Below, one piece after another: positions 4,295 to 32,000 of a stretch of DNA of 32,000 bases. Within the stretch, counting starts at the first letter, position 1; each line of letters opens with the position of its first letter. Under the pieces are notes generated by a model that was not told where the DNA came from, did no database searches, and worked only from the letters and a program-made list of their open reading frames with translations. The DNA is taken from contig NC_014034.1 of NCBI RefSeq assembly GCF_000021865.1, forward strand, positions 2,400,001-2,432,000, given 5' to 3'. This stretch comes from Rhodobacter capsulatus SB 1003. Its GTDB lineage: Bacteria; Pseudomonadota; Alphaproteobacteria; Rhodobacterales; Rhodobacteraceae. The position numbers were made by a program, and so were the translations under genes.

Positions 4295-5614
4295 CTATTC
4301 GGCCACGCGCGCAAAAACCGGCGGCACCGGGGCCCGGCTTCGCAGGGCAAGGGCCGCCTGCGGCGCGGGCGCAAGCGCCAAAAGCAGCGCCGCAAGGACC
4401 CGCTCCGCCCCCGCCCGCCCGCTCAGACCGGCCCCCAGCACCTCGAGCCCCGGGGCCGCGCCCAGAACGACGGGGCAAAGCCCCCGCGCCGCCGCGATCG
4501 CCGCCGCGGAGGCACCCCCGAGCACCAGATCGGCGCCGCTCTCGTCCAGAAGCCGCGCCAGATCCGCCCTGTCCGCGGCGCAGGTCAGGCCGGTATCGGC
4601 CAGGGGCGCCCGGACCCCCTCGGGCGGGCTGTCGGTCAGGATCGCGCGCACCGGCCAGCCCAGCGTCCCGGCCAGAAACCGCGCCAGCGCCCCGGCGCGC
4701 AGGCTGCCATCGGCCACCACGACCCGGCGCGGCGCCAGCACCGCCAGCCGCTCCAGCACCGCATCGAAACGCCAGCCCTGCTGCGCCCGTTCGCGCGCCA
4801 GACTGCCCTCGGCGCCCGCGTCAAGCGGATGACCGAGGCGGTCGGAAAGCCTCCGCACCAGAGCCTCCGCCGCCTCGGCCCCCACCGGCAGCCCGTCCGC
4901 CACGAGCACCGGGATCCCATGCCGCGCCGCCAGCACCTCGGCGGGCGCCGTGCCCCAGGGCGAGAGCACAAGGCTCAGCGCCGCCCCCGCCGCCGCTTCG
5001 AGCGACGCCAGACCGCCCTCGGGGCCGAAGATCGGATTGGCCGCAAGGCCGACCCCCTCCAGCAGCCGCGACAGCGTCTCGATCTCGGCCAGCCAGCCCG
5101 GATCCAGCCCGGGGGCGATGCCGAACAGGTTCACCAGCGGCCGGTCGGCACGGGTCGGCGCGGGCGCGAGCTGGGCCAGAAGACCGGCCAGCAGCCGGGC
5201 ATGGCCCTCATGCGCGGGGCCGTGAAACCCGGCCGTCGGCACCGCCACCACTCGCTCGCCCTGCGCCGTCAGCTCCTTCACCATGGCGCCGACATCATCG
5301 CCGATCATCTCGGCCGGGCAGCCGGTCAGCACCGCCAGCATCCCGCCCTCGAGCACCGCAAGGGCGTTCTTCATCTCCTCGCGCAGCCGCGAGGTGCCGC
5401 CAAAGACCACATGCTTGTCGGCCATGTTGGTCGCGGCGATGCGCGGCAATCCGGGCGGCGCACCATAGCGCCCGCCGCCGGCCGAAAGCCCCGCCCGCAG
5501 CGCGCAGCCGGGGGTGGAATGGACGACGACCGTGACCCCGGGGATCGCCGCCGCCGTGTGAAGCGCGCCGTGCAAGGCGCAGCCACCAAAGGGAAAAATC
5601 GCCGGGCGACCCAT
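4295..5614 (-). CDS. isrK: Nitrogenase-like component 1, NifK/NifN-like subunit (isrK/nflK-type)
   Basis: Oxidoreductase/nitrogenase component-1 signatures: HSTPGC and LTGCPAEMIGDD, plus an extra N-terminal FGGCALHG. The start overlaps the D-subunit stop (TGATG at 5612-5616). Confidence 0.85.
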   Translation of the reverse strand: MGRPAIFPFGGCALHGALHTAAAIPGVTVVVHSTPGCALRAGLSAGGGRYGAPPGLPRIAATNMADKHVVFGGTSRLREEMKNALAVLEGGMLAVLTGCPAEMIGDDVGAMVKELTAQGERVVAVPTAGFHGPAHEGHARLLAGLLAQLAPAPTRADRPLVNLFGIAPGLDPGWLAEIETLSRLLEGVGLAANPIFGPEGGLASLEAAAGAALSLVLSPWGTAPAEVLAARHGIPVLVADGLPVGAEAAEALVRRLSDRLGHPLDAGAEGSLARERAQQGWRFDAVLERLAVLAPRRVVVADGSLRAGALARFLAGTLGWPVRAILTDSPPEGVRAPLADTGLTCAADRADLARLLDESGADLVLGGASAAAIAAARGLCPVVLGAAPGLEVLGAGLSGRAGAERVLAALLLALAPAPQAALALRSRAPVPPVFARVAE

Positions 5615-6969
5615 CAGCGCACCTCCTGCTTGATATGCCAGTCTGGGCTGCGTTTCAGCCAGCCCGGGGTATAGCCCGGCCGCGCGTTTTGCACCGCGCT
5701 GCGGACCAGGGCCCAGCGGGCAAGGGCGATGTCGACCGCCTCTGTCAGCACCTCCGGGGCCGCCGCGCCGATCAGCCGCGCCGGGTCCAGCACCGCGGCG
5801 GGCAGACCCTGCCGCAGCGCCACCACCACCGCATCGCCCGCGCCCAGCAGCAGATCGGGCGCAGTGCGGCGCAGCAGGCCCGCCAGTTCAAAACCCTGCC
5901 CCTCGCCGACATGGATCTGCAGATCCGGCCAGCGCTCGGCCAGGCTGCCCAGCGCCGCGGCATGGCTGCGATCGAGATGCGGCACCGAGAGCACCGCCAC
6001 CGTCCCGCCCAGATCGCCGATCAGCTCTGCCGCGGCCAGCCCCCAGGCCGTGGGCAAGGCCAGCGCGAAGCGCCGCCCCGCAAGCGGTTCGGACAAGGGG
6101 CGCGGCGGTGCAGGCGGAACCGCCACCCCCCCCAGCGCCGCGACCCGGCGCAGCACCGCCACCGTCGCCTGCGCCCCCAGGGGCAGCGCGACATCAAGCC
6201 GGGTCACGCCAAAGCGCGTCTCCAGCCCCTCGGCGAAAAGACCAAGCAGATCGGGCGCCAGAACGAGGCTTGCCTCGGCCCGGCCCGCAAGGGCGATCTC
6301 GGCGACGCGCGCCCCCGCGGGCAGGATGTTCACCCGCCAGCCCAGCCCTTCGATCTGGCCCGCCAGCGCCGCAAGCTCCGGGCTGCGGGTGCTGGTGAGC
6401 AGGTTCAAAAGCCCCGGTTCGCGCGGGCCGTTCTGCGTCTCGACCAGCTGCAAAAGCGCCTCTGCCGCCGCATCGCCCCCGGTCGCGGGCACGGCCGAGC
6501 GGACCCCCTCGGTGCGGACCCAGACCACCGGCTTGCCCAGCTCCGGGCCAAGCGCCGCCACGGTGGCGCGGATGTCGTCGGAATTGATCGCGACGACCGG
6601 GCTGCCCAAGACCGCGATCGCCGCCACCGGGCAGGCGGCATCCAGCGCGCGGAGGGTTTCCGCCAGCACCTCGCCCGAGCCGAGCACGGTGTCGCGCTGA
6701 TCAAGATCGGTCACCGCCAGCGGCGCGGGCCCGGGGGCACGGACGCCACAGCCGCGCGGCCCGTGCACGACAAGACCCAGATCGGGGATTTCCGACAGGA
6801 TCGCCAGCGCCGGGCGCAGATCGTCGGGGGCGGCTTCGCTGAAGCTGCGGATCCGCCGCGGCGGCGTGCCCGCGGCGAATTCGGCCGCCAGATCGGCGGC
6901 GCGGCCAAGAAAGGCCTGGGTCGCCTCGGCCCGGGTCTCGCGCGGCTCCAGTCTGGGACGACGGGCCAT
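5614..6969 (-). CDS. isrD: Nitrogenase-like component 1, NifD/NifE-like subunit (isrD/nflD-type)
   Basis: HGPRGCG motif and overall NifD/BchN-like layout. The ATG at 6969 lies 1 nt after the NifH-like TAA stop, with GGAG upstream, and is preferred over the ORF-track start at 7008. Only two Cys in the whole protein. Confidence 0.85.
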   Translation of the reverse strand: MARRPRLEPRETRAEATQAFLGRAADLAAEFAAGTPPRRIRSFSEAAPDDLRPALAILSEIPDLGLVVHGPRGCGVRAPGPAPLAVTDLDQRDTVLGSGEVLAETLRALDAACPVAAIAVLGSPVVAINSDDIRATVAALGPELGKPVVWVRTEGVRSAVPATGGDAAAEALLQLVETQNGPREPGLLNLLTSTRSPELAALAGQIEGLGWRVNILPAGARVAEIALAGRAEASLVLAPDLLGLFAEGLETRFGVTRLDVALPLGAQATVAVLRRVAALGGVAVPPAPPRPLSEPLAGRRFALALPTAWGLAAAELIGDLGGTVAVLSVPHLDRSHAAALGSLAERWPDLQIHVGEGQGFELAGLLRRTAPDLLLGAGDAVVVALRQGLPAAVLDPARLIGAAAPEVLTEAVDIALARWALVRSAVQNARPGYTPGWLKRSPDWHIKQEVR

Positions 6970-6970
6970 C

Positions 6971-7843
6971 TTACGCGCTCCGCGCCGCGGCGGCGCGTTC
7001 GGCGCCAAAGATCCGGTCGCCCCAGTCCCGCGCCCAATCCTTCAGATCGGGACCGTTGAGGGGCTTCGGCAGCCGGGTTTCCAGATCCCCCGTCACGCGC
7101 CGCGCCAGTTTGCGGTAGATCTCGGCCTGATCGGAATAGGGCGCGGCCTCGATCACCGTCTGGCCGTAAAGCTCGGCCTGCGCGACGTCGACGGACCGGG
7201 GCACATAGCCCACCACCTCGGTGCCGGTGCGATGGGCGAAATCGTCGATCAGCCCGCGGGCATGATCCAGCTGCAGGCTGTTGGCGATGATGCCGCCCAG
7301 CCGCGCCCCGCCCGAGGGCGCATATTTGTCGATCGCCTTGAAGAGATTGTTGGCGGCAAAGATCGCCATGAAATCGGAACTGGTGACGACAAAGGCGCGG
7401 TCCGCGATGCCGTCGCGGATGGGCACGGCAAAGCCGCCGCAGACGACATCGCCCAGCACGTCATAAAGCACATAATCGGGGGCGAAGGTCTCGAAGACGC
7501 GCAGCTCTTCGAGCAGATCGACCGCGGCCGAGATGCCGCGCCCGGCGCAGCCCACCCCCGGCACCGGCCCGCCCGCCTCGATGCACAGAACGCCCCAGAA
7601 ACCGACGGCGGAAATGTCTTCCAGCTTCGGTTTGCGGGCACGGTCGCGCAGGCTGTCCAGCACGGTGGGCAGTTCTGCCCCGCCGCGCAGGATGGTGGTG
7701 GAATCCGATTTCGGATCGCAACCCACCTGAATGACGCGGTGGCCCGCTTCGGCCAAGGCGGCGGCGATGTTCGAGGTGGTGGTGGATTTGCCGATGCCAC
7801 CCTTGCCGTAAATGGCGATGTGGCGGGGGGTCTGGATGCTCAC
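6971..7843 (-). CDS. isrH: NifH/BchL-family ATP-dependent Fe protein (isrH/nflH-type)
   Basis: P-loop GKGGIGKST. Both [4Fe-4S] ligand contexts are present (GVGCAGRG and DVLGDVVCGGFA). GTG start at 7843 with AAGGA 8 nt upstream. Confidence 0.93.
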   Translation of the reverse strand: MSIQTPRHIAIYGKGGIGKSTTTSNIAAALAEAGHRVIQVGCDPKSDSTTILRGGAELPTVLDSLRDRARKPKLEDISAVGFWGVLCIEAGGPVPGVGCAGRGISAAVDLLEELRVFETFAPDYVLYDVLGDVVCGGFAVPIRDGIADRAFVVTSSDFMAIFAANNLFKAIDKYAPSGGARLGGIIANSLQLDHARGLIDDFAHRTGTEVVGYVPRSVDVAQAELYGQTVIEAAPYSDQAEIYRKLARRVTGDLETRLPKPLNGPDLKDWARDWGDRIFGAERAAAARSA

Positions 7844-7868
7844 GGGGCTGTCCTTTCAGGGGCGGAAA

Positions 7869-7888
7869 GGGGGCGGCGCACCGCCCCC
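7869..7888 (-). other. Intercistronic GC-rich stem-loop between the radical-SAM-like gene and the NifH-like gene
   Basis: 8-bp stem GGGGGCGG/CCGCCCCC with loop TGCG on the minus strand, followed only by TTTCC. The U-tract is too short for a strong terminator. Confidence 0.4.
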
Positions 7889-7892
7889 GCAA

Positions 7893-9119
7893 TCACTGGG
7901 CGGCGACGGCGGTTTCGGCGAAGACCGGCAGGGTTTCCGCCTCGATCCGCCAGATGTCATGCTGCAGGCTCGTCACATCGGCGTTGCTGTCGTAAAGGTT
8001 CGCCCAGCTGAACCCGGCCTTTTGCCAGATCGCCGCGATCTTGTGGCCAAGGTCGAGATACCAGCCCGGTTCCGGCGCGCGATGGCCCTCAAGGTCGGAG
8101 CCCGGATTGGGGCACCAGATCGAGGCGGTGCCGACCGCGCCCTTGTCGGCAAGGTATTGAATCCCCGCCAGAAGGCTTTTCTTCGGCTCGATGCCGCCGA
8201 CGAAATTCGAGCGCACATTGCCATGCCCGAAGACGCCCACCGAATATTCGATCGCCTTCAGCCAATGGTCCCAGCCGCCCGAGTCCCGCGCCTTGCCGGG
8301 GCAGATCGCGTTATAGATGCCCTTGTCCCAGAATTCGAGATTGAGCCCGACGGTGCGGTAGCCCGCTTCCTTGAAACGGTCGAGATTGCGCAGATCGATG
8401 GGGGCGGCGACGACGGCGGTGCCGTTGAAATCCTCGACCCCCGCATATTTGCGCAGCGCATCGGCGACATCGAGGTAATATTCCAGCTCGCGCCGTTCCG
8501 GGATCACGCCGCCGGTGATGTTGACGTGATCGACCAGCCCCGCCCGATGCGCCTCGGCATAGGTTTCGCCGATCTGACGCGCGGTCTTCCAGAAGATCCC
8601 GGTCTTTTCGCCATAGGTGTCCTTGGTGAAATTGATGTTGCAAAACAGGCAGTCCTCGCCCTTCGCCTTGTAGGAGCACTCGTTCGAATAGGCGACGAAG
8701 AACTGCCGTTCGGAGCCCAGCGTGGCGATGGTGGACATCGCCACCCCGTCCGAGGTGCGCTTGCCGTAGAAGGCGGGCCGGTCGGGGAAGAAGGCCTCGG
8801 CCAGTTCCTCGTCGCCGCGCACGACGATGGTGCGGTTGCCGTCCAGCTCGATCCGGTCGCGCGCCTCGGGGTTCAGCCGGAACGGCACGACAAGGCCGTG
8901 ATCAAGGCGGAAATAGCTCGGCTGCTCCTCGTCATGGGTGACAAAATCCATCTCGAAGAGCGTGTGGACCTGTTCTTGCGTCCTGATGCCCGGGGCGATG
9001 TGGGCCAGCGCCTCGGGGCTGATCGACACGCCATCGGTGTAAAGCCGCGCCTTCAGCGCGAGTTCGGCCCAAAGCCGATCCTTGAGGCCAAGCGGACGGG
9101 GGGGAAGGGAAGCATGCAT
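7893..9119 (-). CDS. isrB: Radical-SAM-like enzyme with variant Cys motif (isrB/nflB-type)
   Basis: ECSYKAKGEDCLFCN gives C-X8-C-X2-C in the position where radical SAM enzymes carry CX3CX2C. TIM-barrel-like downstream blocks (GLNLEFWD, FVGGIEP). The ATG at 9119 has an AAGGA Shine-Dalgarno; the ATG at 9218 has none. Confidence 0.75.
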   Translation of the reverse strand: MHASLPPRPLGLKDRLWAELALKARLYTDGVSISPEALAHIAPGIRTQEQVHTLFEMDFVTHDEEQPSYFRLDHGLVVPFRLNPEARDRIELDGNRTIVVRGDEELAEAFFPDRPAFYGKRTSDGVAMSTIATLGSERQFFVAYSNECSYKAKGEDCLFCNINFTKDTYGEKTGIFWKTARQIGETYAEAHRAGLVDHVNITGGVIPERRELEYYLDVADALRKYAGVEDFNGTAVVAAPIDLRNLDRFKEAGYRTVGLNLEFWDKGIYNAICPGKARDSGGWDHWLKAIEYSVGVFGHGNVRSNFVGGIEPKKSLLAGIQYLADKGAVGTASIWCPNPGSDLEGHRAPEPGWYLDLGHKIAAIWQKAGFSWANLYDSNADVTSLQHDIWRIEAETLPVFAETAVAAQ

Positions 9120-9214
9120 CGGGTCATCCTTGGGAAAGCGTTGCAAAGGCTGCGCAGGGTCGGCCTGCGCGCGCTTCGGTCTGGGCTGTGCTGGGCGCCG
9201 ATAGACGGCAAATT

Positions 9215-9232
9215 CCATCGATATTTAGATGG
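9215..9232. promoter_or_regulatory. AT-rich palindrome upstream of the isrB-like gene (CCATC-GATATTTA-GATGG)
   Basis: Inverted repeat CCATC/GATGG with an 8-nt AT-rich spacer, about 100 nt upstream of the ATG at 9119. A GATAGAC half-motif lies next to it at 9200-9206. Confidence 0.3.
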
Positions 9233-17634: not shown

Positions 17635-19413
17635 TCAGCGCCGGCGACTGGCCAGCCGTGCCACCGCCGCGACGAACAGATCGACCTCGTCCCTTGTGTT
17701 GTAAAAGGCAAGCGAAGGCCGCACCGTCGCCTCCAGCCCGAAGCGGCGCAGGATCGGCTGCGCGCAGTGATGCCCCGCCCGCACCGCGATCCCCTCGCGG
17801 TCCAGCGCCCGGCCGACCTCGAGCGGCTCGAACCCCTCCAGCACGAAGGAGAGGACCGAGGCCTTGTGCGCCGCCGTGCCGATCAGCCGCACGCCGCGCA
17901 CCTGCGCCAGTTGCGCGGTCGCATAGTCCAGAAGCGCGTGTTCATAGGCGCCGATCGCGTCAAGCCCGATCCGTTGCACATAGGCCAGCGCCGCCGCCAG
18001 CCCGGCGGCATCGGCGATATTGCCGGTGCCCGCCTCGAACCGCGCGGGCGGCGGCTGGTAGAGCGTGCGCTCGAAACTGACATCGGCGATCATGTTGCCC
18101 CCGCCCTGCCAGGGCGGCAGCGTCTCGGCCAGGGCGCGGCGGATGTAGACCGCGCCGATGCCGGTGGGCCCAAACACCTTGTGGCCGGAAAAGACAAAGA
18201 AATCGGCGCCGATCTCCTGCACGTTCACCGGCATGTGGCTGACCGATTGCGCGCCATCGACAAGCGCCACCGCGCCGACCCCATGCGCCGCCGCCACGAT
18301 CTCGCGCACCGGAACCACCGTGCCCAAAGCGTTCGAGACCTGCGTCACCGCCACGATCTTCGTGCGCGGGCAAAGCAGCTTGAGATAGTCCTCCAGCCGC
18401 ACCTGCCCGGTGTCATCGACCGGAATGACCCGGATCCGCGCCCCCTTTTCCGCCGCAAGCTGTTGCCAGGGCACGATATTGGCATGGTGTTCCAGATGCG
18501 AGACGATGATCTCGTCGCCCGCGCGGATGTTCGCCACGCCCCAGGTGCGGGCGACAAGGTTGATCCCCTCGGTCGCGCCGCGCACGAAGGTGATTTCCTC
18601 CGACGCGGCCGCACCGAGAAAATCCCGCACCGCATCGCGGGCGTGCTCATAGGCATCCGTCGCCCGCGCCGCCAAAGTATGCGCGGCGCGGTGGATGTTC
18701 GAATTCTCGTGGCGATAGAACTCGGACAGCCGGTCGATGACGCAGGCGGGTTTCTGCGTCGTCGCGGCATTGTCGAACCAGACCAGCTGCCGCCCGTTCA
18801 CCCGCTCGGACAGGATCGGGAAATCGCGGCGCACGGCCTGGACGTCAAAGGCAGGCGCCGCGGCAGGCGTCGCCGGAGGGGGCTCTGCCGCCTCGGGCAG
18901 GAAGTAGAACCGCCCGGGCGGGGCCGCTTGCGGCGTGGCGAAGGGCGGCGCCCCGATCCGCGGCGACGCCGGGGCGGGCGCCAGTCGGGCATGGGCCGGG
19001 GGCGTCTGCAAGGCCGCGGGCGCGGTGTCCTGCGGCGCCAGCCTCGGCGCCCCGGAGCGATCCGGCGCCTGGGCCGCGGATTTGCCGGTCAGCAGGCCAA
19101 AGGCCTGCCGCGCCAGGCTGTCGAGACTGTCGGCATGACCGGCGCCAAGCGGCGCCGTGCCCAGCGCGCCGGGCGCAAGCCCCGCCCCGGGCGCCAGATC
19201 GGCGGCAGGGCCGCTGGCGCCGGGATGGCCCCCCGTCGCGCGCCGCGCAAGCGCGCCCGCCGTCCCCGCATCCGGCTCGGCCAGATAAGAGGGGCTTTCG
19301 CCCCCCTCTCCCGGCAATGCGGTGAAGAAATCCCGCGCCAGCGCCGTCAGTTGCGCGATGTCGGGCAGGCCCGCGGGGGCCGCGCTCTCAGCGGTAAGTG
19401 TCGGGGTAGTCAT
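17635..19413 (-). CDS. Class-V (SufS/CsdA-like) cysteine desulfurase with a long disordered N-terminal extension; predicted encapsulin cargo
   Basis: The catalytic domain runs from about FDVQAVRRDFPIL and includes the SGHK PLP lysine and the C-terminal RAGHHCAQP active-site Cys. It is preceded by about 190 aa rich in Pro, Ala and Gly. The ATG at 19413 has a GAGGTGG Shine-Dalgarno and overlaps the encapsulin 3' end by 26 nt. Confidence 0.9.
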   Translation of the reverse strand: MTTPTLTAESAAPAGLPDIAQLTALARDFFTALPGEGGESPSYLAEPDAGTAGALARRATGGHPGASGPAADLAPGAGLAPGALGTAPLGAGHADSLDSLARQAFGLLTGKSAAQAPDRSGAPRLAPQDTAPAALQTPPAHARLAPAPASPRIGAPPFATPQAAPPGRFYFLPEAAEPPPATPAAAPAFDVQAVRRDFPILSERVNGRQLVWFDNAATTQKPACVIDRLSEFYRHENSNIHRAAHTLAARATDAYEHARDAVRDFLGAAASEEITFVRGATEGINLVARTWGVANIRAGDEIIVSHLEHHANIVPWQQLAAEKGARIRVIPVDDTGQVRLEDYLKLLCPRTKIVAVTQVSNALGTVVPVREIVAAAHGVGAVALVDGAQSVSHMPVNVQEIGADFFVFSGHKVFGPTGIGAVYIRRALAETLPPWQGGGNMIADVSFERTLYQPPPARFEAGTGNIADAAGLAAALAYVQRIGLDAIGAYEHALLDYATAQLAQVRGVRLIGTAAHKASVLSFVLEGFEPLEVGRALDREGIAVRAGHHCAQPILRRFGLEATVRPSLAFYNTRDEVDLFVAAVARLASRRR

Positions 19414-20318
19414 GGTATTTTCCCACCTCCACATCGGTCAGCACGGCCAGCGCATCGGGCGATTGCACGACGAGCGAGCAGTAAAGCGAGATCAGATAGG
19501 ACGCGATCGCATTGCGGTCGATCCCCATGAACCGCACCGAGAGGCCCGGGCTCTGCTCGCCCTCCAGCCCCGGTTGAAAGAGGCCCACGACGCCCTGCCG
19601 CTTCTCGCCCACCCGCAGAAGCAGGATCGAGGTCTTGCCGCCGGTGACGGGGATCTTGTCGGACGGAATGATCGGCAGGCCGCGCCAGGTGAGGAACTGC
19701 GCCCCGAACAGGCTGACCGTCGCGGGCGGGACCCCGCGGCGCGTGCATTCGCGGCCAAAGGCGGCGATGGCGCGCGGATGGGCCAGGAAGAAGGCGGGTT
19801 CCTTCCAGACCTTGGTGATCAGCTCGTCCAGATCGTCGGGCGTCGGCGCCCCGGTCAGCGTCGGGATGATCTGGCTCTCGGCGGCATTGGCCAGAAGCCC
19901 GTAATCGGGGTTGTTGATCAGCTCGCTTTCCTGCCGCTCCTTCACCGTCTCGACGGTCAGGCGCAGCTGTTCCTTGACCTGATCGAAGGGCGAGGAATAT
20001 AGGTCGGACACCCGCGTATGGACATCGAGCACGGTCCAGACGGCATTGAGGAAATATTCCCGCGGCCGGTCGTCGTAATCGACGAAGGTCGCGGGCAGCA
20101 CGGCCTCGTCGCGCTGGGTGCAGGCGACGCGCACGGCATCGGCGTTCTTCACCGTGTTGAGCCGGTAGATCCCCGCCTCGACCGGAAGCCATTGCAGGAA
20201 ATGCACCAGCCAGCGCGGCAGTGATCGTGGGCCAGGATACGGCGCCCGTCTTCGTGGCATTGGCAAAGCTGGCGGGCGGCACTGTCGCCCAGCGCCAGTT
20301 TGACACCGGTTCGGTCAT
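19388..20318 (-). CDS. Family 2A (SrpI-like) encapsulin shell protein, interrupted by an apparent 1-nt frameshift near 20219-20222 (possible pseudogene, sequencing error or recoding)
   Basis: The ATG at 20318 has a strong AAGGAG Shine-Dalgarno and reads 33 codons (MTEPVSNWRWATVPPASFANATKTGAVSWPTIT). The remaining 276 codons (PRWLVHFLQWLPVEAGIYRLN ... to the stop at 19388) lie in the +1 frame. About 309 aa once joined, with no cNMP-binding insertion. Operon context of cysteine desulfurase, CysE and rhodanese. Confidence 0.8.
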
Positions 20319-20340
20319 TCACGTTCTCCTTCTTGGGGTG

Positions 20341-20372
20341 CAGAAAACCATCCCGCGGACGCGCCGCGGGAT
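20341..20372 (-). terminator. Terminator/attenuator-like hairpin between cysE and the encapsulin gene
   Basis: On the minus strand: 9-bp stem ATCCCGCGG/CCGCGGGAT with loop CGCGT, followed by GGTTTTCTG. It ends 22 nt upstream of the encapsulin ATG, abutting its Shine-Dalgarno region. Confidence 0.45.
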
Positions 20373-20397
20373 TGGCAGGTTGAAAATGTGTTCTGTG

Positions 20398-21357
20398 TCA
20401 GTCTGTTCCGGGGCCCGGCCGGGGGCCCCGGGTCAGCCCGGCCTGGGTCACATGCGCCCCCGGCGGCACGCTTTCGGTCAGCCAGACATTGCCGCCGATG
20501 ACGGCGCCCTTGCCCAGCGTGACCCGGCCCAGCACGGTGGCGCCGGCATAGATCACCACGTCATCCTCGACGATCGGATGGCGCGGATGGCCCTTGAGCG
20601 CACGGCCCAGCGCATCGGTGGGAAAGCTTTTCGCCCCCAGCGTGACCGCCTGAAACAGCCGCACGCCATCGCCGATCACCGTGGTTTCGCCGATCACCAC
20701 GCCGGTGCCGTGATCGATGAAGAACCCCGCGCCGATCGTCGCGCCGGGGTGGATGTCGATCCCCGTCGCGCGATGCGCCGCCTCCGAGATCATCCGCGCG
20801 ATCAGCGGTGCGCCAAGACGGTAAAGCCGGTGGGCGATGCGATGGTGGATCATCGCGGCCAGACCCGGGTAGCACAGCAGCACCTCGTCGACGCTGCGCG
20901 CCGCCGGATCGGCGCCATGGGCCGCCAGGACATCCTGGTCAAGCTGGGTGCGGATCGTCGGCAGATATTGCGCGAAGTCGCGCACAAGCGCATGCGCCCG
21001 CCCCCGGATTTCCGCCCGCTGCGCCGGATCGGCGTCGTTCGGACGGCCGCCCAGTTCCAGAACCACCTGTTCCACCAGATCGCGCAGCACGACATCGAGC
21101 GTGTGGCCGACATAAAGCTGTTCGCTTTCCTGCCGCAGGTCCGAAGGCCCGAGCCGCATCGGAAACAGCGCCCCGCGCAGCCCGGCGACGATCCGTTCCA
21201 CCGTCTCGGGCGCGGGCAATTCGCGCCCGCCCGGCGTGGTGGCGCGATGATGCGCCGCCCGCCAGTCGGCGCGCGCCCGGGTCAGCGCCGCCAGCACCGG
21301 AACCAGGGAAAACCCGTTGTCCGCGTCGTGATCCGTCCGTTGCGTGTCAAGCGTCAT
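20398..21357 (-). CDS. cysE: Serine O-acetyltransferase (long form, 319 aa)
   Basis: Hexapeptide-repeat core GIDIHPGATIGAGFFIDHGTGVVIGETTVIGDGV typical of CysE. AAGGAGG Shine-Dalgarno 5 nt before the ATG at 21357. Confidence 0.9.
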   Translation of the reverse strand: MTLDTQRTDHDADNGFSLVPVLAALTRARADWRAAHHRATTPGGRELPAPETVERIVAGLRGALFPMRLGPSDLRQESEQLYVGHTLDVVLRDLVEQVVLELGGRPNDADPAQRAEIRGRAHALVRDFAQYLPTIRTQLDQDVLAAHGADPAARSVDEVLLCYPGLAAMIHHRIAHRLYRLGAPLIARMISEAAHRATGIDIHPGATIGAGFFIDHGTGVVIGETTVIGDGVRLFQAVTLGAKSFPTDALGRALKGHPRHPIVEDDVVIYAGATVLGRVTLGKGAVIGGNVWLTESVPPGAHVTQAGLTRGPRPGPGTD

Positions 21358-21389
21358 GCTGCCTCCTTGGCTGAAATTCCTGCCTTCAA

Positions 21390-21437
21390 TCCGTCGCCCC
21401 GGTGCCGCGGCCCCAGTCCGTCGTCCCCGGTGCCGCG
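21390..21437. repeat. Tandem 20/21-nt direct repeat in the rhodanese-cysE spacer
   Basis: TCCGTCGCCCCGGTGCCGCG (21390-21409) and TCCGTCGTCCCCGGTGCCGCG (21417-21437). They are identical apart from one extra T, and their starts are 27 nt apart. Confidence 0.5.
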
Positions 21438-21438
21438 C

Positions 21439-21906
21439 TCAGTCCTGCCGCCAGGGCAGATCGCGCCAGCGCCAGCCCGACACCCGGCCGCGGTGGCCCG
21501 CCGCGTCCAGATCGCCCTCGAACCCCTCAAGCACGTTGAACACCTGGGTGAAGCCCGCCGCCGTCGCCGCCTGCGCCGCCTGAACCGAGCGCTGCCCGGA
21601 CCGGCACAAGAGCAAGATCACCGCCTCGCGCGGGGCGACCGTTTCCAGCCCGCGCAGAAACCGCGGGTTGCGCGTCAGCTCGAGCCCGCTGGCCCAGGGC
21701 AGGTGCAGCGCCCCCGGCACATGGCCGACGAAGCGGATCTCCTCGGGCGAGCGGATGTCGATCAGCAGCCCCTGCCCCGCCTCGGCCAGCGCCTGCGCCA
21801 GATCGGGCGGCACATCGCCCGCATAGCTCAGACCGGCCGCGCGCGCCGTGGCGCGGATCTGGGCCAGCGCATCGGCCGGGGCAAGCGGGGCGGAAACGGC
21901 GGTCAT
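21439..21906 (-). CDS. Single-domain rhodanese (sulfurtransferase), 155 aa
   Basis: Active-site loop CRSGQRS in a rhodanese-fold context. The ATG at 21906 has an AGGGAG Shine-Dalgarno 7 nt upstream. The longer ORF-track extension to 22290 is Arg/Pro-rich with no ribosome-binding site. Confidence 0.85.
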   Translation of the reverse strand: MTAVSAPLAPADALAQIRATARAAGLSYAGDVPPDLAQALAEAGQGLLIDIRSPEEIRFVGHVPGALHLPWASGLELTRNPRFLRGLETVAPREAVILLLCRSGQRSVQAAQAATAAGFTQVFNVLEGFEGDLDAAGHRGRVSGWRWRDLPWRQD

Positions 21907-22003
21907 GGCAACTCCCTGTGGCAAGCGGACATCGCGGGGCGGGACGGCGCGGCGGGGATGCCCCGCCCGCCTCTTCCGGCTGGGAGAACCGGAACACGAG
22001 AAT

Positions 22004-22030
22004 TCACGATTGAGAAGATAGATATTAATC
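22004..22030 (+). promoter_or_regulatory. Operator/promoter-like motif, copy B: TCACGA-N7-GATAGA-T-ATTAATC
   Basis: 21 of 27 positions match 981-1007. It sits in the only AT-rich patch of the 307-bp region upstream of the rhodanese-cysE-encapsulin operon, 98 nt from the rhodanese ATG. Confidence 0.4.
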
Positions 22031-22213
22031 GTCTTCTGTTTCGGCGCCGTTTTTGGAGGAAATCCGCAGCGGGGCGGCTTTCGGACAGAAGGTTTCTTCT
22101 GCGCCCCGGCAGCCCCTGCGCGGCCCGGGCGACTCAGCCGCGCCGGATTGCCCTGCGGCGCGGCCCGCGCCCGCCCGAAACCGGGCGGACGAAGACAGCT
22201 GGACGGGGGCGGC

Positions 22214-23248
22214 TCAGCCCTTTTGCGCGGCAAAGGGGGCGCGGTATTGCGCCTGACGTTCCAGCATCCAGCCCGGATATTCCGGGGCAAGCTTTGTCAC
22301 CGCATCAAGCGCCGCCAGATCCCCGGGCGACAGGCTGACCCCGGTCGCGCCGATGTTGTCGGCCAGCTGATCGACCCGTTTCGCCCCCACGATCACCGAG
22401 GTCACCACCGGCTGATGCAAAAGCCAGGCCAGCGCCACCTGTGCGACAGAGCACCCCCTCTCCGTGGCGATCTCGCGCAGCACCGCCACCGCGGCATCGC
22501 CCCGCGCCAGATCGACGGGCGGGAAGTTGAAGCTGGCCCGCCGCCCCCCGGCTGCCGTGCCGCCGCTGTATTTGCCCGACAGGAACCCGCCCGCCAGCGG
22601 GCTCCAGACCAGCAGTCCGATCCCCTCGCTTTGCAGCATCGGCACGATGTCGCGTTCCAGATCGCGACCGACCAGCGTGTAATAGGCCTGCAGCGACAGG
22701 ATCGGCGCCAGCTTGCGGGCCTCGGCGATACCCACCGCCTTGACGATCTGCCAGGCCGCCCAGTTCGACAGGCCGATGTAGCGCACATGCCCCTGCCGCA
22801 CGAGCGTATCCAGCGCCTCGAGCGTCTCCGTGATCGGCGTCACCGGGTCGAAGCCATGGATCTGGTACAGGTCGATGTGATCCATCTGCAGCCGCGTCAG
22901 GCTGGCCTTGGCCTGTGCCAGCACATGCGCGCGCGACGCGCCAGCGGCATTCGGCCCCGCGCCCATCGGCCCCAGAACCTTGGTCGCGATCACCACATCG
23001 TCGCGGGCAAGGCCAAGATTGCGGATCGACTGACCCAGAATCCGCTCGCTCTCGCCGCCCGCATAGACATTGGCGGTGTCGATGAAGTTGATCCCGGCCT
23101 CGATCGCGGTCTGCACCAGCGCATCGGCCTCTTCCTGACGCAACTGGCCGATCTGGCCCCAGATCCCCTCCGAGCCGCCAAAGGTCATCGTGCCGAGGCA
23201 GAGTTCGGAAACCAGAAGGCCGCTTGGGCCAAGCGTGCGATAGCGCAT
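22214..23248 (-). CDS. Aldo/keto reductase (Kv-beta/YajO-like)
   Basis: MRYRTLGPSGLLVSELCLGTMTFGG N-terminus and AKR blocks throughout. AAGGA Shine-Dalgarno 7 nt before the ATG at 23248. Confidence 0.85.
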   Translation of the reverse strand: MRYRTLGPSGLLVSELCLGTMTFGGSEGIWGQIGQLRQEEADALVQTAIEAGINFIDTANVYAGGESERILGQSIRNLGLARDDVVIATKVLGPMGAGPNAAGASRAHVLAQAKASLTRLQMDHIDLYQIHGFDPVTPITETLEALDTLVRQGHVRYIGLSNWAAWQIVKAVGIAEARKLAPILSLQAYYTLVGRDLERDIVPMLQSEGIGLLVWSPLAGGFLSGKYSGGTAAGGRRASFNFPPVDLARGDAAVAVLREIATERGCSVAQVALAWLLHQPVVTSVIVGAKRVDQLADNIGATGVSLSPGDLAALDAVTKLAPEYPGWMLERQAQYRAPFAAQKG

Positions 23249-25040: not shown

Positions 25041-26750
25041 ATGACAGTTTTCGGATGGCTGCAGATCGCGGCCGTATTGCTTTTCACGCTGGCGACGGCG
25101 GTGCCGCTTGGCCGCTACATGGCCCGTCTTTTCAGCGGCGAGCGCACCTTCCTGCATCCGCTCCTGCACCCGGTCGAGCGCGGCTTTTACCGGCTCGCAG
25201 GCGTCACGCCCGAACGCGAACAGGGCTGGCTGGGCTATGCGCTGGCGATGCTCGCCTTCAGCGCGGCGGGGTTTGCCGCGCTTTACCTGATCTTGCGGGC
25301 GCAGGGGCTGATGCCCTTCAACCCGGGCCAGCTGCCCGGCCTGCCCGCCGATCTGGCCTTCAACACCGCCGTCAGCTTCCTGACCAACACCAACTGGCAG
25401 GCCTATGCGGGCGAAACCACGATGAGCCCCTTCAGCCAGATGGCCGGGCTTGCGGTGCAGAATTTCCTCTCGGCGGCGACCGGGATCGCGCTGGCCATGG
25501 CGGTGACGCGGGCCTTCGCGCGGGCGGGCACCGATCGGCTGGGCAATTTCTGGGCCGACATGACCCGGGCGACGCTTTATGTGCTTTTGCCGCTGTCGAT
25601 CCTTGTGGCGCTGGCGCTGGTGGCGCTTGGCGTGCCGCAGACGCTGACCGGCTCGGTCGCGGCGGTGACGCTCGAAGGCGCGCAACAGACGATCGCGCTG
25701 GGGCCGGTTGCCAGCCAGGAGGCGATCAAGCAGCTGGGCACCAATGGCGGCGGGTTCTTCAACGCCAATTCGGCGCATCCGCTGGAAAACCCCTCGGCTT
25801 TGTCGAACGGGCTGGTGATCTGGGCGATGCTGGCGATTTCGGCGGCGCTGCCGATCACCTTTGGCCGGATGACCGGATCGGAGCGGCAGGGCTGGGCGAT
25901 CCTGGCCGCAATGGGGCTGTTGCTGATCGCGGCGACCACCACCGTCTATTGGGCCGAAACCGCGGGCACCCCGCATCTGGCCGCGCTGGGGCTTGATCCG
26001 CTCGCGGGCAACATGGAGGGCAAGGAGGTCCGGTTCGGGCAGGCGATGTCGGCCCTCTTCGTCGCGGTGACCACGGGGCTGTCCTGCGGTGCGGTGAATG
26101 CGATGCATGACAGCCTGACACCGATGGGCGGTCTGGTGCCGATGCTGCTGATGCAGTTGGGCGAGGTGCTGCCGGGCGGCGTCGGCTCCGGGCTTTACGG
26201 CATGGTGGTGTTTTGCGTGCTTTCGGTCTTTGTCGCCGGTCTGATGGTCGGGCGCAGCCCCGCGTTTCTGGGCAAGAAGATCGAGGCGCGGGAAATCCGG
26301 CTGGCGGTTCTGGCGGTGCTGATCCTGCCGCTGGTGATCCTGGGCTTCACCTCGGCCGCGGCGCTGCTGCCTTCGGCGCTGGCCAGCCTGAACAACGCCG
26401 GGCCGCATGGGCTGAGCGAGCTGCTTTACGCCTATTCCTCGGCGGCGGGCAACAACGGCTCGGCCTTCGCGGGCCTCAATGCCAACACGCCCTGGTTCAA
26501 CACCACCCTTGGCATCGCGATGATGCTGGGCCGCTTCGCCTATGTGCTGCCGGTCCTGGCGATGGCCGGGGCGCTGGCGGCGAAACCGCGCCTCGCGGCC
26601 TCGGCAGGCACCTTTCCCACCACCTCGCCCCTCTTCGTCGGGCTCTTGGTGGGGGTGATCGTGATCCTTGGCGGGCTGCAATTCTTCCCCGCGCTCGCGC
26701 TTGGCCCGATCGTCGAGCAGGTGCTGATGCGCGATCTCGTGACCTTCTGA
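25041..26750 (+). CDS. kdpA: Potassium-transporting ATPase subunit A
   Basis: 569-aa polytopic membrane protein with KdpA signatures ([22 protein letters not shown]). Confidence 0.95.
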
Positions 26751-26760
26751 GAGGCTTATC

Positions 26761-28809
<2,049 letters not shown>

Positions 28810-28819
28810 GGAGGCCTGC

Positions 28820-29380
28820 ATGCTCTCTCATCTTCGCCCGGCGCTTGTCTTCGTCGGCGGTTTCACCCTCTTGCTCGGGCTGGCCTATCCGCTGTCGCTG
28901 ACGGCCATTGCCACCACGCTTTTGCCGCATCAGGCGCAGGGCAGCCTGATCCGGCAGGGCGAGCGCATTCTGGGCTCGGCGCTTCTGGGCCAGAATTTCA
29001 CCGCGCCCGGGTATTTCCACCCCCGCCCCTCGGCCACGGCTGCGCCCTATGATGCCATGGCCTCGGGCGGTTCGAACCTTGGTCCGCTGTCGCAAAGGCT
29101 GATCGACCGGATCCGGGCCGATGTCACGGCCGCAGAGCTGGCGGCGCCGGTGCCCGCCGATGCGGTGACCGCCTCGGCCTCGGGGCTTGATCCCGACATC
29201 TCGCCGCAAAATGCGCAGGCACAGGTGGCGCGGGTGGCGGCGGCGCGGGGCATCCCCCCCGCGCGGGTGGCGGCGCTGGTCACGGATCAGACCCGGCAGC
29301 CGCTCCTTGGCGTCTTTGGCGCGCCGCGGGTGAATGTGCTTGCGCTGAACCGTGCGCTGGACACACTGGCGGCGCAATGA
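28820..29380 (+). CDS. kdpC: Potassium-transporting ATPase subunit C
   Basis: N-terminal transmembrane helix plus KdpC blocks (SGGSNLGP, SASGLDPDISP). GAGGAGG Shine-Dalgarno before the ATG at 28820. Confidence 0.9.
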   Translation: MLSHLRPALVFVGGFTLLLGLAYPLSLTAIATTLLPHQAQGSLIRQGERILGSALLGQNFTAPGYFHPRPSATAAPYDAMASGGSNLGPLSQRLIDRIRADVTAAELAAPVPADAVTASASGLDPDISPQNAQAQVARVAAARGIPPARVAALVTDQTRQPLLGVFGAPRVNVLALNRALDTLAAQ

Positions 29381-29392
29381 CCCGAGGATGCG

Positions 29393-32000
29393 ATGCCCGC
29401 CGGTGATCCGGAAAAACGCCCCGATCCCGATGCGTTGCTGGCGCTCAGCCAGCGCGAGAGGCCCGGCCGTCTGAAGATCTTCCTCGGCGCGGCGCCGGGG
29501 GTGGGCAAGACCTGCGCCATGCTGCAGGAGGCCCACCGGCTGCGCGCCGAGGGGGTCGATGTGGTGCTCGGCCTGATCGAGACGCATGGCCGGGCCGAAA
29601 CCGAGGCGCTGGCGGCGGGGCTGGAAACCCTGCCGCGGCGGCACATCGACCATCGCGGCCAGCCGCTCGAGGAATTCGACATCGACGCCGCGCTGGCCCG
29701 GCGTCCGGCGCTGCTGGTGGTGGACGAACTCGCCCACACCAACGCGCCGCAAAGCCGACATCCGAAACGCTGGCAGGACATCCGCGAACTGCTCGATGCC
29801 GGGATCGATGTCTGGACGGCGCTGAACATCCAGCATCTGGAAAGCCTGGCCGATGTGGTGGCGCGGATCACCGGCGCCCCCATGCGCGAGACCGTGCCCG
29901 ATGTCCTGCTGCAAGAGGCGCAGGATGTGGTGCTCGTCGATATCCCGCCCGACGAGCTGATCGCGCGGCTCAAGGCGGGCAAGGTCTATCTGCCGCAGAC
30001 CGCGCGCCGGGCGGTGGAGAAATTCTTCACCCCCGGCAATCTGACGGCGCTGCGCGAACTGGCTTTGCGCCGCACCGCCGAGCGGGTCGACGACCAGATG
30101 ACCGAGATCCTGCGGCAAAAGGCGATCGAGGGGCCCTGGGCCGCGGCCGAGCGGCTGCTGGTCTGCCTGGTCGCCGATGGTAGCAGCGATGCGCTGATCC
30201 GGCAGACGGCACGGCTGGCCTCGGCGCTGAATGCGGACTGGATCGCGCTCCTGCTGGCGCCGCCCGGCGATCCGGCGCAACCGGACCGGCGCGCGAGCGA
30301 GGCGCTGCGGCTGGTCGAGACGCTGGGGGGCACGGCGCAGCGGCGGACCAGCGCCGATTTTGCCGCGGATATCCTGCGCGTGGCGCGGCGCGAACATGTC
30401 ACGCAGATCCTGCTCGGGCATCGGCCGCGCGGCCCGCTGGCGCGGCTGCTGCGCCAAAGCCTGGCCGAGGCGCTGGCCGCCCGCGCCGAGGGGATCGCGG
30501 TGCATCTGCTGCCCCTGCCCGGCCCGGCGCCCGCGGCGGCGCGCCGACGCCTTGACGCCCTGCGCCGGGGCCTGACGCGGCCGGGCCTGCCCGCCGATCT
30601 GGCGCTTGCGGGGCTGGCCACGACCGGGGTGATCGCGATCGGCCATGCTTTGGCCGCGGTGATGGAACTGCCGAACCTGTCGATGATCTTTCTGGCGGGC
30701 GTGCTGATCTGCGGCACGTTGCGCGGCACCCGGGCGGCGGTTCTGGCGGCGCTTCTGTCCTGTCTGGGCTACAATTTCTTCTTCATCGAGCCGCTGCACA
30801 CCTTCAGCATCGCGCGGCCGCATGAATTCCTGGCGCTGCTGATCTTTCTGGTCGTCGCCAGCCTGACCGGGTCCTGGACCGGGCGGATCCGCGCGCAGGC
30901 CCGCGCGGCGCTGGCGCAGACCCGGGGCGTCGAGGCGCAGGCGGCGTTTTCGCGCCAGCTCTCGGCGGCGTCTTCGGCCGAGGATGTCGCCTGGGCGATG
31001 GTGACGCAGGTGCAGGGCGGGCTGGGCGGCAAGGCGATCCTGCTTCTGGTCGAGGGCAGCGAGCTGGTGCCCTGCGCCGCCTGGCCGCCCGAGGAAATCG
31101 CCGATCCGGTCGAGATGACCGCGGCGCGCTGGGCGTTTGAAAAAGGCGAGGTGGCGGGCTGGCGCACGGCGACGCTGCCGAACCTGCGGCTGCGCTTTCA
31201 CCCGCTGGCGACGCCGCGCCATGTGGTGGCGGTGCTGGGCTACGAGCCGCCCGACCGCGACCAGCCGCTCTCGGTCGCCGACGAGGCGAAGCTGGCCGTG
31301 GCGGTGGAACAGGCGGCGGTGGCGCTGGACCGCGCGCTTTTGGTGCGCGAGGCGGTGAAGGCGGCGGCGATGCAGGAAAACGAGAACATCCGCGATGCGC
31401 TTTTGGCCTCGCTCGGCCATGATCTGCGCACGCCTCTGGCCGCGATCACCGGCGCGGTGACGACGCTGCAACGGGGCGAAACCGACCTGCGCCCCGATCA
31501 GCGCACCGAGCTGCTGGACACCATCGGGCAGGAAGCCGCGCGGCTGAACCGCTTCGTGGGCAACCTTTTGGAGATGAGCCGGATCGATCAGGGCGTGGTC
31601 AAGGTCCGCCGCGACTGGGTCGATGTCGGCGATGCGATCCGGCTGGCGGCCGAGCGGGCGCGCAAGACCCATCCGGGGCGGCAGACCCGGGTCAGCCTGG
31701 CCCCCGATCTGGGCTTCGTGCGCGGCGATCAGGATCTGCTGTCGCAGGTGATCTTCAACCTGCTCGACAACGCACATAAATACGGCGAAAGCGAGGTCAG
31801 CGTGCATGCGCGCAATGAAGGGGATCAGGTGGCGATCAGCGTGACCGACGACGGCCCCGGGGTGAAACCGGCCGATCTGGAGCGGATCTTCGAGAAATTC
31901 TTCCGCGCGGGCGGCACCGACCGGCGCAAGCCCGGCACCGGGCTGGGGCTGTCGATCTGCCGCGGCCTCGTGCGGGCGATGGGCGGCACGATCAAGGCCG
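29393..32000 (+). CDS. kdpD: Sensor histidine kinase KdpD (3'-truncated by the window edge)
   Basis: N-terminal KdpD P-loop domain (LKIFLGAAPGVGKTCAML), transmembrane block, H-box SLGHDLRTPL (in frame with the ATG at 29393) and ATPase G-box GTGLGLSIC. It is absent from the ORF track because no stop codon occurs before position 32000. Confidence 0.9.
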   Translation, partial: MPAGDPEKRPDPDALLALSQRERPGRLKIFLGAAPGVGKTCAMLQEAHRLRAEGVDVVLGLIETHGRAETEALAAGLETLPRRHIDHRGQPLEEFDIDAALARRPALLVVDELAHTNAPQSRHPKRWQDIRELLDAGIDVWTALNIQHLESLADVVARITGAPMRETVPDVLLQEAQDVVLVDIPPDELIARLKAGKVYLPQTARRAVEKFFTPGNLTALRELALRRTAERVDDQMTEILRQKAIEGPWAAAERLLVCLVADGSSDALIRQTARLASALNADWIALLLAPPGDPAQPDRRASEALRLVETLGGTAQRRTSADFAADILRVARREHVTQILLGHRPRGPLARLLRQSLAEALAARAEGIAVHLLPLPGPAPAAARRRLDALRRGLTRPGLPADLALAGLATTGVIAIGHALAAVMELPNLSMIFLAGVLICGTLRGTRAAVLAALLSCLGYNFFFIEPLHTFSIARPHEFLALLIFLVVASLTGSWTGRIRAQARAALAQTRGVEAQAAFSRQLSAASSAEDVAWAMVTQVQGGLGGKAILLLVEGSELVPCAAWPPEEIADPVEMTAARWAFEKGEVAGWRTATLPNLRLRFHPLATPRHVVAVLGYEPPDRDQPLSVADEAKLAVAVEQAAVALDRALLVREAVKAAAMQENENIRDALLASLGHDLRTPLAAITGAVTTLQRGETDLRPDQRTELLDTIGQEAARLNRFVGNLLEMSRIDQGVVKVRRDWVDVGDAIRLAAERARKTHPGRQTRVSLAPDLGFVRGDQDLLSQVIFNLLDNAHKYGESEVSVHARNEGDQVAISVTDDGPGVKPADLERIFEKFFRAGGTDRRKPGTGLGLSICRGLVRAMGGTIKA

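Follow-up and report, generated by a model that had tools for sequence, protein, structure and literature searches.

The isethionate reductase locus isrBHDK of Rhodobacter capsulatus: an α-type subunit with one conserved cysteine and a predicted four-cysteine [4Fe-4S] cluster at the IsrD-IsrK interface

Among nitrogenase-like enzymes, methylthio-alkane reductase (MarBHDK, Group IV-C) provides the closest solved structures (9fmg, 9d9u) to the system considered here, and it likewise uses B, H, D and K genes for sulfur scavenging by reductive C-S cleavage. MarDK carries six P-cluster cysteines together with MarD Cys270 and His429, which serve an L-like cluster. A simpler [4Fe-4S] cluster is found at the subunit interface of NifEN, of dark-operative protochlorophyllide oxidoreductase (DPOR, BchNB) and of chlorophyllide a oxidoreductase (COR, BchYZ). 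CfbCD, the Ni-sirohydrochlorin a,c-diamide reductive cyclase of Group IV-B, is also nitrogenase-like; its [4Fe-4S] cluster is a simple one, and it has neither a P- nor an M-cluster. Here we examine a 32,000-nucleotide stretch of the Rhodobacter capsulatus SB 1003 genome (contig NC_014034.1, positions 2,400,001 to 2,432,000; hereafter the window). The operon at 4295-9218 on its minus strand is isrBHDK (rcc02234-02237), which encodes the isethionate reductase of this organism, a Group IV-F nitrogenase-like system.

The locus was described and named by Morimoto et al. 2024 (mSphere, PMC11423573). Mutants in any isrBHDK gene could not use isethionate anaerobically as a sulfur source, the isethionate sulfite-lyase IslAB rescued a DK mutant, and transfer of isrBHDK with ssuCAB conferred the trait on R. 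sphaeroides (PMC11423573). Expression of isrD was induced more than 1000-fold by isethionate, and His-IsrD co-purified IsrK in a complex with a 410-nm absorbance that was bleached by dithionite (PMC11423573). The same authors matched the single conserved Cys74 of IsrD to NifD Cys88, and Cys12, Cys37 and Cys99 of IsrK to NifK Cys70, Cys95 and Cys153. They found Cys275 and His442 unconserved and proposed that the four cysteines may hold a [4Fe-4S] cluster (PMC11423573). A 2026 Chem Rev review (PMC13474568), which classes Isr as Group IV-F, repeated this prediction and noted that IsrDK is without MarD Cys270 and His429. The cysteine pattern, the proposed [4Fe-4S] cluster and the role of the locus are already known from the 2024 paper and the 2026 review. 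The present analysis goes slightly beyond the paper in placing the Cys62 column on Asp49, followed by an invariant Asp/Glu, and in describing the IsrD tail with Asn129 and the IsrK residues Arg78, Lys82 and Asn83.

Our analysis suggests that IsrD, as the α-type subunit of IsrBHDK, would share one four-cysteine [4Fe-4S] cluster with IsrK at each interface, and that the complex would lack both a P-cluster and a Cys/His-bound 8Fe cofactor. From the sequence comparisons below, we give this reading a probability of about 0.8. The identity of the locus is clear. IsrD, IsrK and IsrH gave exact protein matches in R. capsulatus genomes on look-up, and the cysteine numbering used here equals the published numbering (IsrD C74; IsrK C12/C37/C99; IsrH C99/C135). 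The four genes, encoding radical S-adenosylmethionine (SAM), NifH-like, NifD-like and NifK-like proteins, are tightly packed: the isrH stop and isrD start are one base apart (TAAGATG), and the isrD stop overlaps the isrK start (TGATG). Proteins, gene order, neighbours and cysteine numbering are the same as in the published system, and nothing substantive differs except the assignment of Asp49 rather than Arg to the Cys62 column. An earlier reading made from the letters of this DNA alone, here called the sequence-only reading, had set the NifD-like protein apart from methylthio-alkane reductase by its ligands. That contrast holds, while the identity of the enzyme as isethionate reductase had gone unrecognized.

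Conservation was assessed in a broad sample. Searching 1.84 billion representatives with a profile brought up IsrD-like proteins first, followed by their nearest other relatives, and 95 of the full-length matches were aligned. The family was represented by 80 species-level loci from about 10 phyla (Pseudomonadota, Chlorobiota, Bacillota, Spirochaetota, Thermodesulfobacteriota, Chloroflexota, Myxococcota, Bacteroidota, Fibrobacterota and Verrucomicrobiota), and 79 IsrD and 79 IsrK sequences were used for all conservation values given below. A cysteine column counted as conserved when 30% or more of the sequences had Cys there. IsrD and IsrK were also aligned with NifD/K/E/N, AnfK and BchN/B/Y/Z of the same genome, which holds 12 PF00148 paralogues.

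The IsrD translation contains exactly two cysteines, C74 (HGPRGCG) and C113 (DAACPV), as the sequence-only reading had counted. In an alignment of 24 IsrD homologues with 36-90% identity, C74 was invariant and C113 variable; other R. capsulatus strains have His or Tyr in place of C113. Since C113 varies even within the species, it was rejected as a second ligand, and IsrD is effectively a one-cysteine protein. C74 is the sole conserved cysteine column (100%), and among all full-length IsrD-like representatives it is missing from one divergent sequence, P0180. The column corresponds to the HGxxGC cysteine of NifD, NifK, NifE, NifN, BchN, BchY and BchZ, and to Asp36 of BchB. The raw count of two cysteines is unremarkable (the other PF00148 paralogues of this genome have 4-8); it is the position-specific pattern that exceeds chance. 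The only in-frame upstream extension of isrD, from a TTG at 7008, adds 13 residues and no cysteine, and the alignments of IsrD to its homologues and to MarD span the whole protein. These results rule out an error in the gene model, which is sound.

Three columns of IsrK hold conserved cysteines, C12, C37 and C99, each at 100%, and its other two cysteines, C345 and C380, are unconserved. The motifs HSTPGC and TGCP had been recognized from the letters alone as retained ligands. Cys12 in FGGC, by contrast, had been called extra, and this part of the claim did not survive: the residue aligns with NifK Cys70, with the first ligand cysteine of NifE and with the first cysteines of BchN and BchY, and so occupies the canonical first ligand position. 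A single conserved cysteine in IsrD with three in IsrK, the pattern of isethionate reductase, was found in 79/79 species. The paralogue alignment gave the same ligand columns as that of the 95 representatives; over the three positions, IsrD (x, Cys, x) resembles NifN and BchZ, and IsrK (Cys, Cys, Cys) resembles NifE, BchN and BchY.

We then asked what occupies the former cluster- and cofactor-ligand columns of IsrD. Where IsrK reads TGCPAEMIGDD, IsrD reads GSPVVAINSDD, as first seen without any alignment, and P124 within this motif lies at the Cys154 column. Nearly all three-cysteine relatives have Cys here, as do NifD, NifE, BchN and BchY, whereas P124, together with N129 and D131, is 100% conserved in IsrD. 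At column 49, nearly all three-cysteine Group IV relatives have Cys where IsrD-like proteins have D, N or S, and the next column, 50, is invariably acidic (D or E). The earlier claim that no equivalent of the iron-molybdenum cofactor ligand Cys275 is available was borne out by A238 in the profile alignment to 9fmg_A. Column 238 is D or N in most IsrD-like proteins and Cys in nearly all Mar-like relatives. Column 377 is variable in IsrD (His in 1/79) and His in many Mar-like relatives, so that both columns are unconserved across the family. Compared with nitrogenase (NifDK/VnfDK/AnfDK), whose α subunit has Cys62, Cys88 and Cys154 for the P-cluster and Cys275 and His442 for the M-cluster, only the Cys88 equivalent is present, and the score against NCBIfam nifD is 34 bits (cut-off 653). 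Compared with MarDK, in which the D and K subunits give three P-cluster cysteines each, D49 and P124 stand at two of the three D columns, and A238 and A377 replace the L-like cluster ligands, so that IsrD is without four of the MarDK ligand positions.

The register of these columns has an internal control. In one MAFFT alignment of the 95 full-length matches, the three-cysteine relatives carry Cys at 49, 74, 124 and 238 (nearly all) and His at 377 (many). As these relatives hold the expected residues, the alignment is in register. HMMER and MAFFT alignments both placed NifD Cys62 on IsrD Asp49, whereas the published account gives Arg (PMC11423573). Arg41 is conserved in IsrD-like and three-cysteine Mar-like proteins alike (R41, D49 and D50 lie within 6820-6849) and is therefore not the Cys62 column. 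No further conserved cysteine appeared in IsrD, and among histidines only H69, part of the superfamily-wide HGP motif, exceeded 80% conservation in the 79 species. Additional conserved Cys or His ligands, revealed by a corrected gene model or alignment, were among the findings that the sequence-only reading had named as able to overturn it; the alignments supplied no such ligand, and the alternative start brings no cysteine.

Ten of the 79 IsrD-like proteins, from Chlorobiaceae, Geobacteraceae and Desulfuromonadaceae, show a motif 'LCPD' with Cys at the Cys275 column and a 'GDSTH' His nearby (loci L018, L022-L024, L029, L030, L033, L036, L043 and L073, with the IsrD-like gene at about 6000-7400 in most). 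Most of these loci are without a strong adjacent IsrB-type gene, and L018 is flanked by NMT1-type (SsuA/TauA-like) ATP-binding cassette (ABC) transporter genes. The LCPD cysteine of these Chlorobiota and Desulfuromonadales was considered as a relic cofactor site and rejected: its distribution is patchy, with four changes on the tree, and deeply nested rather than basal.

The assignment of IsrD as the α-type subunit draws on profile, fold and tree comparisons. The IsrD family profile matched MarD (9fmg_A) at 1e-62 and MarK at 1.4e-16, while the best PDB match of IsrK was MarK (9d9u_C, 7e-42). An AlphaFold2 model of IsrD had a predicted local distance difference test (pLDDT) score of 85.7, and its top fold-search match was again MarD 9fmg_A, at a template modelling (TM) score of 0.81. 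IsrD and Mar-like D proteins share an N-terminal R-E-x-R-L ... R-x-F-S segment, and MarD and IsrD also have a Y..W motif near the C-terminus. In the tree, one-cysteine IsrD-like proteins formed one clade with a Shimodaira-Hasegawa-like approximate likelihood ratio test (SH-aLRT) value of 99 on the α-type side, with IsrK on the β-type side, which agrees with the view from the letters alone that this is a distinct branch of the superfamily. On the profile scores, the N-terminal segment and the position in the tree, a β-type (NifN/BchB-like) IsrD, which would make the 3+1 pattern a conventional one, was rejected. As all other sampled α-type lineages have three cysteines, IsrD most likely lost two. 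IsrD-like proteins fall outside the NifEN, DPOR and COR clades, and all NCBIfam scores are far under the cut-offs for these.

The IsrD C-terminal tail is conserved in the family. Conservation reaches 95% or more at Y433, W437, W444, K447 and E449; of these, Mar-like relatives lack W444, K447 and E449. Low pLDDT for the tail of the monomer model suggests that it may be ordered only within the complex. In IsrK, R78, K82 and N83 are invariant on the helix after the FGG motif (R76-N83, 5366-5389), at positions taken by Asp, Gly and Ala in MarK. This cationic set lies near the predicted cluster site, and its three residues, together with Asn129 and the tail residues of IsrD, are candidate sulfonate-binding residues.

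Taken with the known systems, the ligand set fits a simple inter-subunit [4Fe-4S]-type cluster and not a P-cluster with a large cofactor, as the sequence-only reading had proposed, and the 1+3 pattern in all 79 species supports it. As in NifEN, DPOR and COR, the predicted site would have a 3+1 ligand set at canonical columns, but with the asymmetry inverted: the β-type subunit would give three ligands and the α-type subunit one, where normally α gives three, making the Isr site a mirror image of those of NifEN and COR. Isr differs from these systems also in clade and in its small sulfonate substrate, as opposed to a tetrapyrrole or cluster precursor. CfbD is homomeric with three conserved cysteines, whereas Isr is heteromeric with a one-cysteine D subunit. 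In the proposed mechanism, each IsrD-IsrK interface would hold one [4Fe-4S] cluster bound by three cysteines from IsrK and one from IsrD. The IsrH dimer would reduce this cluster in an ATP-dependent manner, as in NifEN, DPOR and COR, and its electrons would drive the reductive C-S cleavage of isethionate to sulfite.

Several points weigh against this reading. The meeting of the four cysteines at the D2K2 interface is predicted from alignment columns. By analogy with the BchB Asp36 precedent, a non-cysteine ligand is possible, and Asp49 and Asp/Glu50 stand at the Cys62 column. The α/β split in the tree had an SH-aLRT of 91, below the threshold of 95, with long reference branches. The published biochemistry of the complex consists of the co-purification and the 410-nm absorbance, the review calls the metallocofactors 'entirely unknown' experimentally (PMC13474568), and a literature search for later spectroscopy or structures of IsrDK found nothing. 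Finally, IsrB is essential by the published genetics, though a plain [4Fe-4S] cluster requires no dedicated radical SAM maturase. For this last reason, a further cofactor and a catalytic role for IsrB were both kept as rival explanations.

The first of these, which we consider unlikely, is that IsrDK has a second cofactor besides the interface [4Fe-4S] cluster. It would be made or inserted by IsrB and held by residues other than Cys and His, or non-covalently, in the M/L-cluster pocket of IsrD. An essential, operon-encoded IsrB is in keeping with this idea, as is the finding that most of the 80 loci include a B-type radical SAM gene. So are the MarD fold kept by IsrD and its family-specific invariant polar residues (N129, W444, K447, E449 and D49/D50), and the literature leaves the function of IsrB open. 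However, both cofactor-ligand columns are unconserved in IsrD, some lineages have no adjacent B gene, and DPOR, COR and CfbD function without such a cofactor. The domain content of IsrB also speaks against it. MarB and other NifB homologues of Group IV have retained a further domain that binds SAM, while IsrB has the radical SAM domain only (PMC13474568). In agreement, the domain matches here were PF04055 alone and NF045502, a variant radical SAM family, leaving the radical SAM domain as the sole domain of the protein, as published for IsrB.

Rather unlikely, in our view, is that the vacated IsrD half of the P-cluster site forms a substrate pocket, where the interface [4Fe-4S] cluster itself reduces isethionate and IsrB contributes a radical or maturation step. 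Such a pocket would be lined by the family-invariant IsrD residues Asp49, Asp/Glu50, Pro124 and Asn129, by IsrK Arg78, Lys82 and Asn83, and possibly by the W-x-x-K-x-E tail. If true, this would be a new catalytic logic in the superfamily, without a separate active-site cofactor or tetrapyrrole-type pocket.

Fainter still are the prospects of IsrB being the true C-S-cleaving radical catalyst, with IsrHDK confined to pumping low-potential electrons, at the cost of ATP, into the cluster of IsrB. The authors of the original study raised this possibility themselves (PMC11423573), and it would suit the essentiality of IsrB, its variant C-x8-C-x2-C motif and NF045502 match, and the want of a recognizable catalytic cofactor site in IsrDK. 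Set against this, no nitrogenase-like DK component is known to do nothing but pass electrons to another enzyme, B does not lie next to HDK in every locus, and the conserved family-specific residues of IsrD suggest that it has a substrate site of its own. Lastly, that the low cysteine count is an artefact, whether from an incorrect gene model, faulty sequencing or a Mar-type pseudogene in decay, has a negligible chance of being right, given identical or near-identical IsrD in many R. capsulatus assemblies, full-length alignment with homologues and MarD, a cysteine pattern kept in 79 species, an upstream extension that brings no cysteine, and the more than 1000-fold induction by isethionate and growth failure of every isrBHDK mutant.

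The remaining features of the operon and its relatives are as follows, with coordinates collected in Table 1. IsrH scored 370 bits against TIGR01287, under its cut-off. The isrB open reading frame (ORF) reaches an ATG at 9218, and database members are 408 residues long. The sole tri-cysteine cluster of IsrB is C148-x8-C157-x2-C160 (8640-8678), compared with the canonical CX3CX2C. H-D-K synteny was kept in the 80 loci wherever the retrieved contig reaches. Some related loci (L049, L050, L019 and L028) surround H-D-K with two to five radical SAM paralogues of the IsrB type, and in many Bacillota the B gene lies 3′ of K or several kb off, and not upstream of H.

Table 1. Features of the isrBHDK operon and ligand-column residues of IsrD and IsrK, with positions in the window.
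Feature	Position	Strand	Basis
isrK (rcc02234), NifK/MarK-like β-type subunit, 439 aa	4295..5614	-	PF00148 3.4e-60
isrD (rcc02235), NifD/MarD-like α-type subunit, 451 aa	5614..6969	-	PF00148 9.8e-41
isrH (rcc02236), NifH-like ATP-dependent reductase, 290 aa, Cys99 and Cys135	6971..7843	-	PF00142 2.2e-95
isrB (rcc02237), variant radical SAM protein, 408 aa	7893..9119	-	NF045502 variant_rSAM 2e-127; PF04055
IsrK Cys99 (TGCPAEMIGDD), equivalent to NifK Cys153	5318..5320	-	79/79 species
IsrK Cys37 (HSTPGC), equivalent to NifK Cys95	5504..5506	-	79/79 species
IsrK Cys12 (FGGC), equivalent to NifK Cys70 / NifE first ligand	5579..5581	-	79/79 species
IsrD C-terminal tail Y433..W437..W444-H-I-K447-x-E449-V-R, family-conserved (R. 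capsulatus: K447-Q-E449)	5617..5673	-	79 species
IsrD Ala377, column of NifD His442 / MarD His429 (cofactor ligand)	5839..5841	-	Profile alignment to 9fmg_A
IsrD Ala238, column of NifD Cys275 / MarD Cys270 (cofactor ligand)	6256..6258	-	Profile alignment to 9fmg_A
IsrD Pro124, column of NifD Cys154 / MarD 'SCP' Cys	6598..6600	-	Pro in 79/79 species
IsrD Cys113 (DAAC), unconserved	6631..6633	-	Family alignment
IsrD Cys74 (HGPRGC), only conserved Cys, equivalent to NifD Cys88	6748..6750	-	79/79 species
IsrD Asp49-Asp50, NifD Cys62 column	6820..6825	-	Alignments with Group IV relatives and paralogues

Upstream of the operon on the same strand are xsc (sulfoacetaldehyde acetyltransferase; TIGR03457, 899 bits), a MocR-type regulator and a class-III aminotransferase (tpa). 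Farther along lie tauABC-like transporter genes, a cysteine desulfurase (sufS), a hexapeptide acetyltransferase (cysE) and a rhodanese gene, and this set of neighbours matches the published 26-kb locus. The stretch 17635-22290, all on the minus strand, holds the cysteine desulfurase, a 302-residue ORF without a Pfam match, the CysE-like hexapeptide acetyltransferase and the rhodanese. The cysteine desulfurase is a 599-residue ORF with a long N-terminal extension, its Aminotran_5 domain beginning at residue 218. The genes of this stretch are those listed as induced by isethionate, namely sufS2, major membrane protein I, serine O-acetyltransferase and rhodanese (PMC11423573). A kdpA, kdpB and kdpD potassium-transport/sensor cluster follows the sulfur island at 25041-31999.

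Under the favoured reading, of a single [4Fe-4S] cluster shared by IsrD and IsrK, Isr would show that a nitrogenase scaffold pared down to one four-cysteine interface cluster can still support C-S cleavage for anaerobic sulfur scavenging. This would bear on how cofactor complexity evolved in the nitrogenase superfamily.

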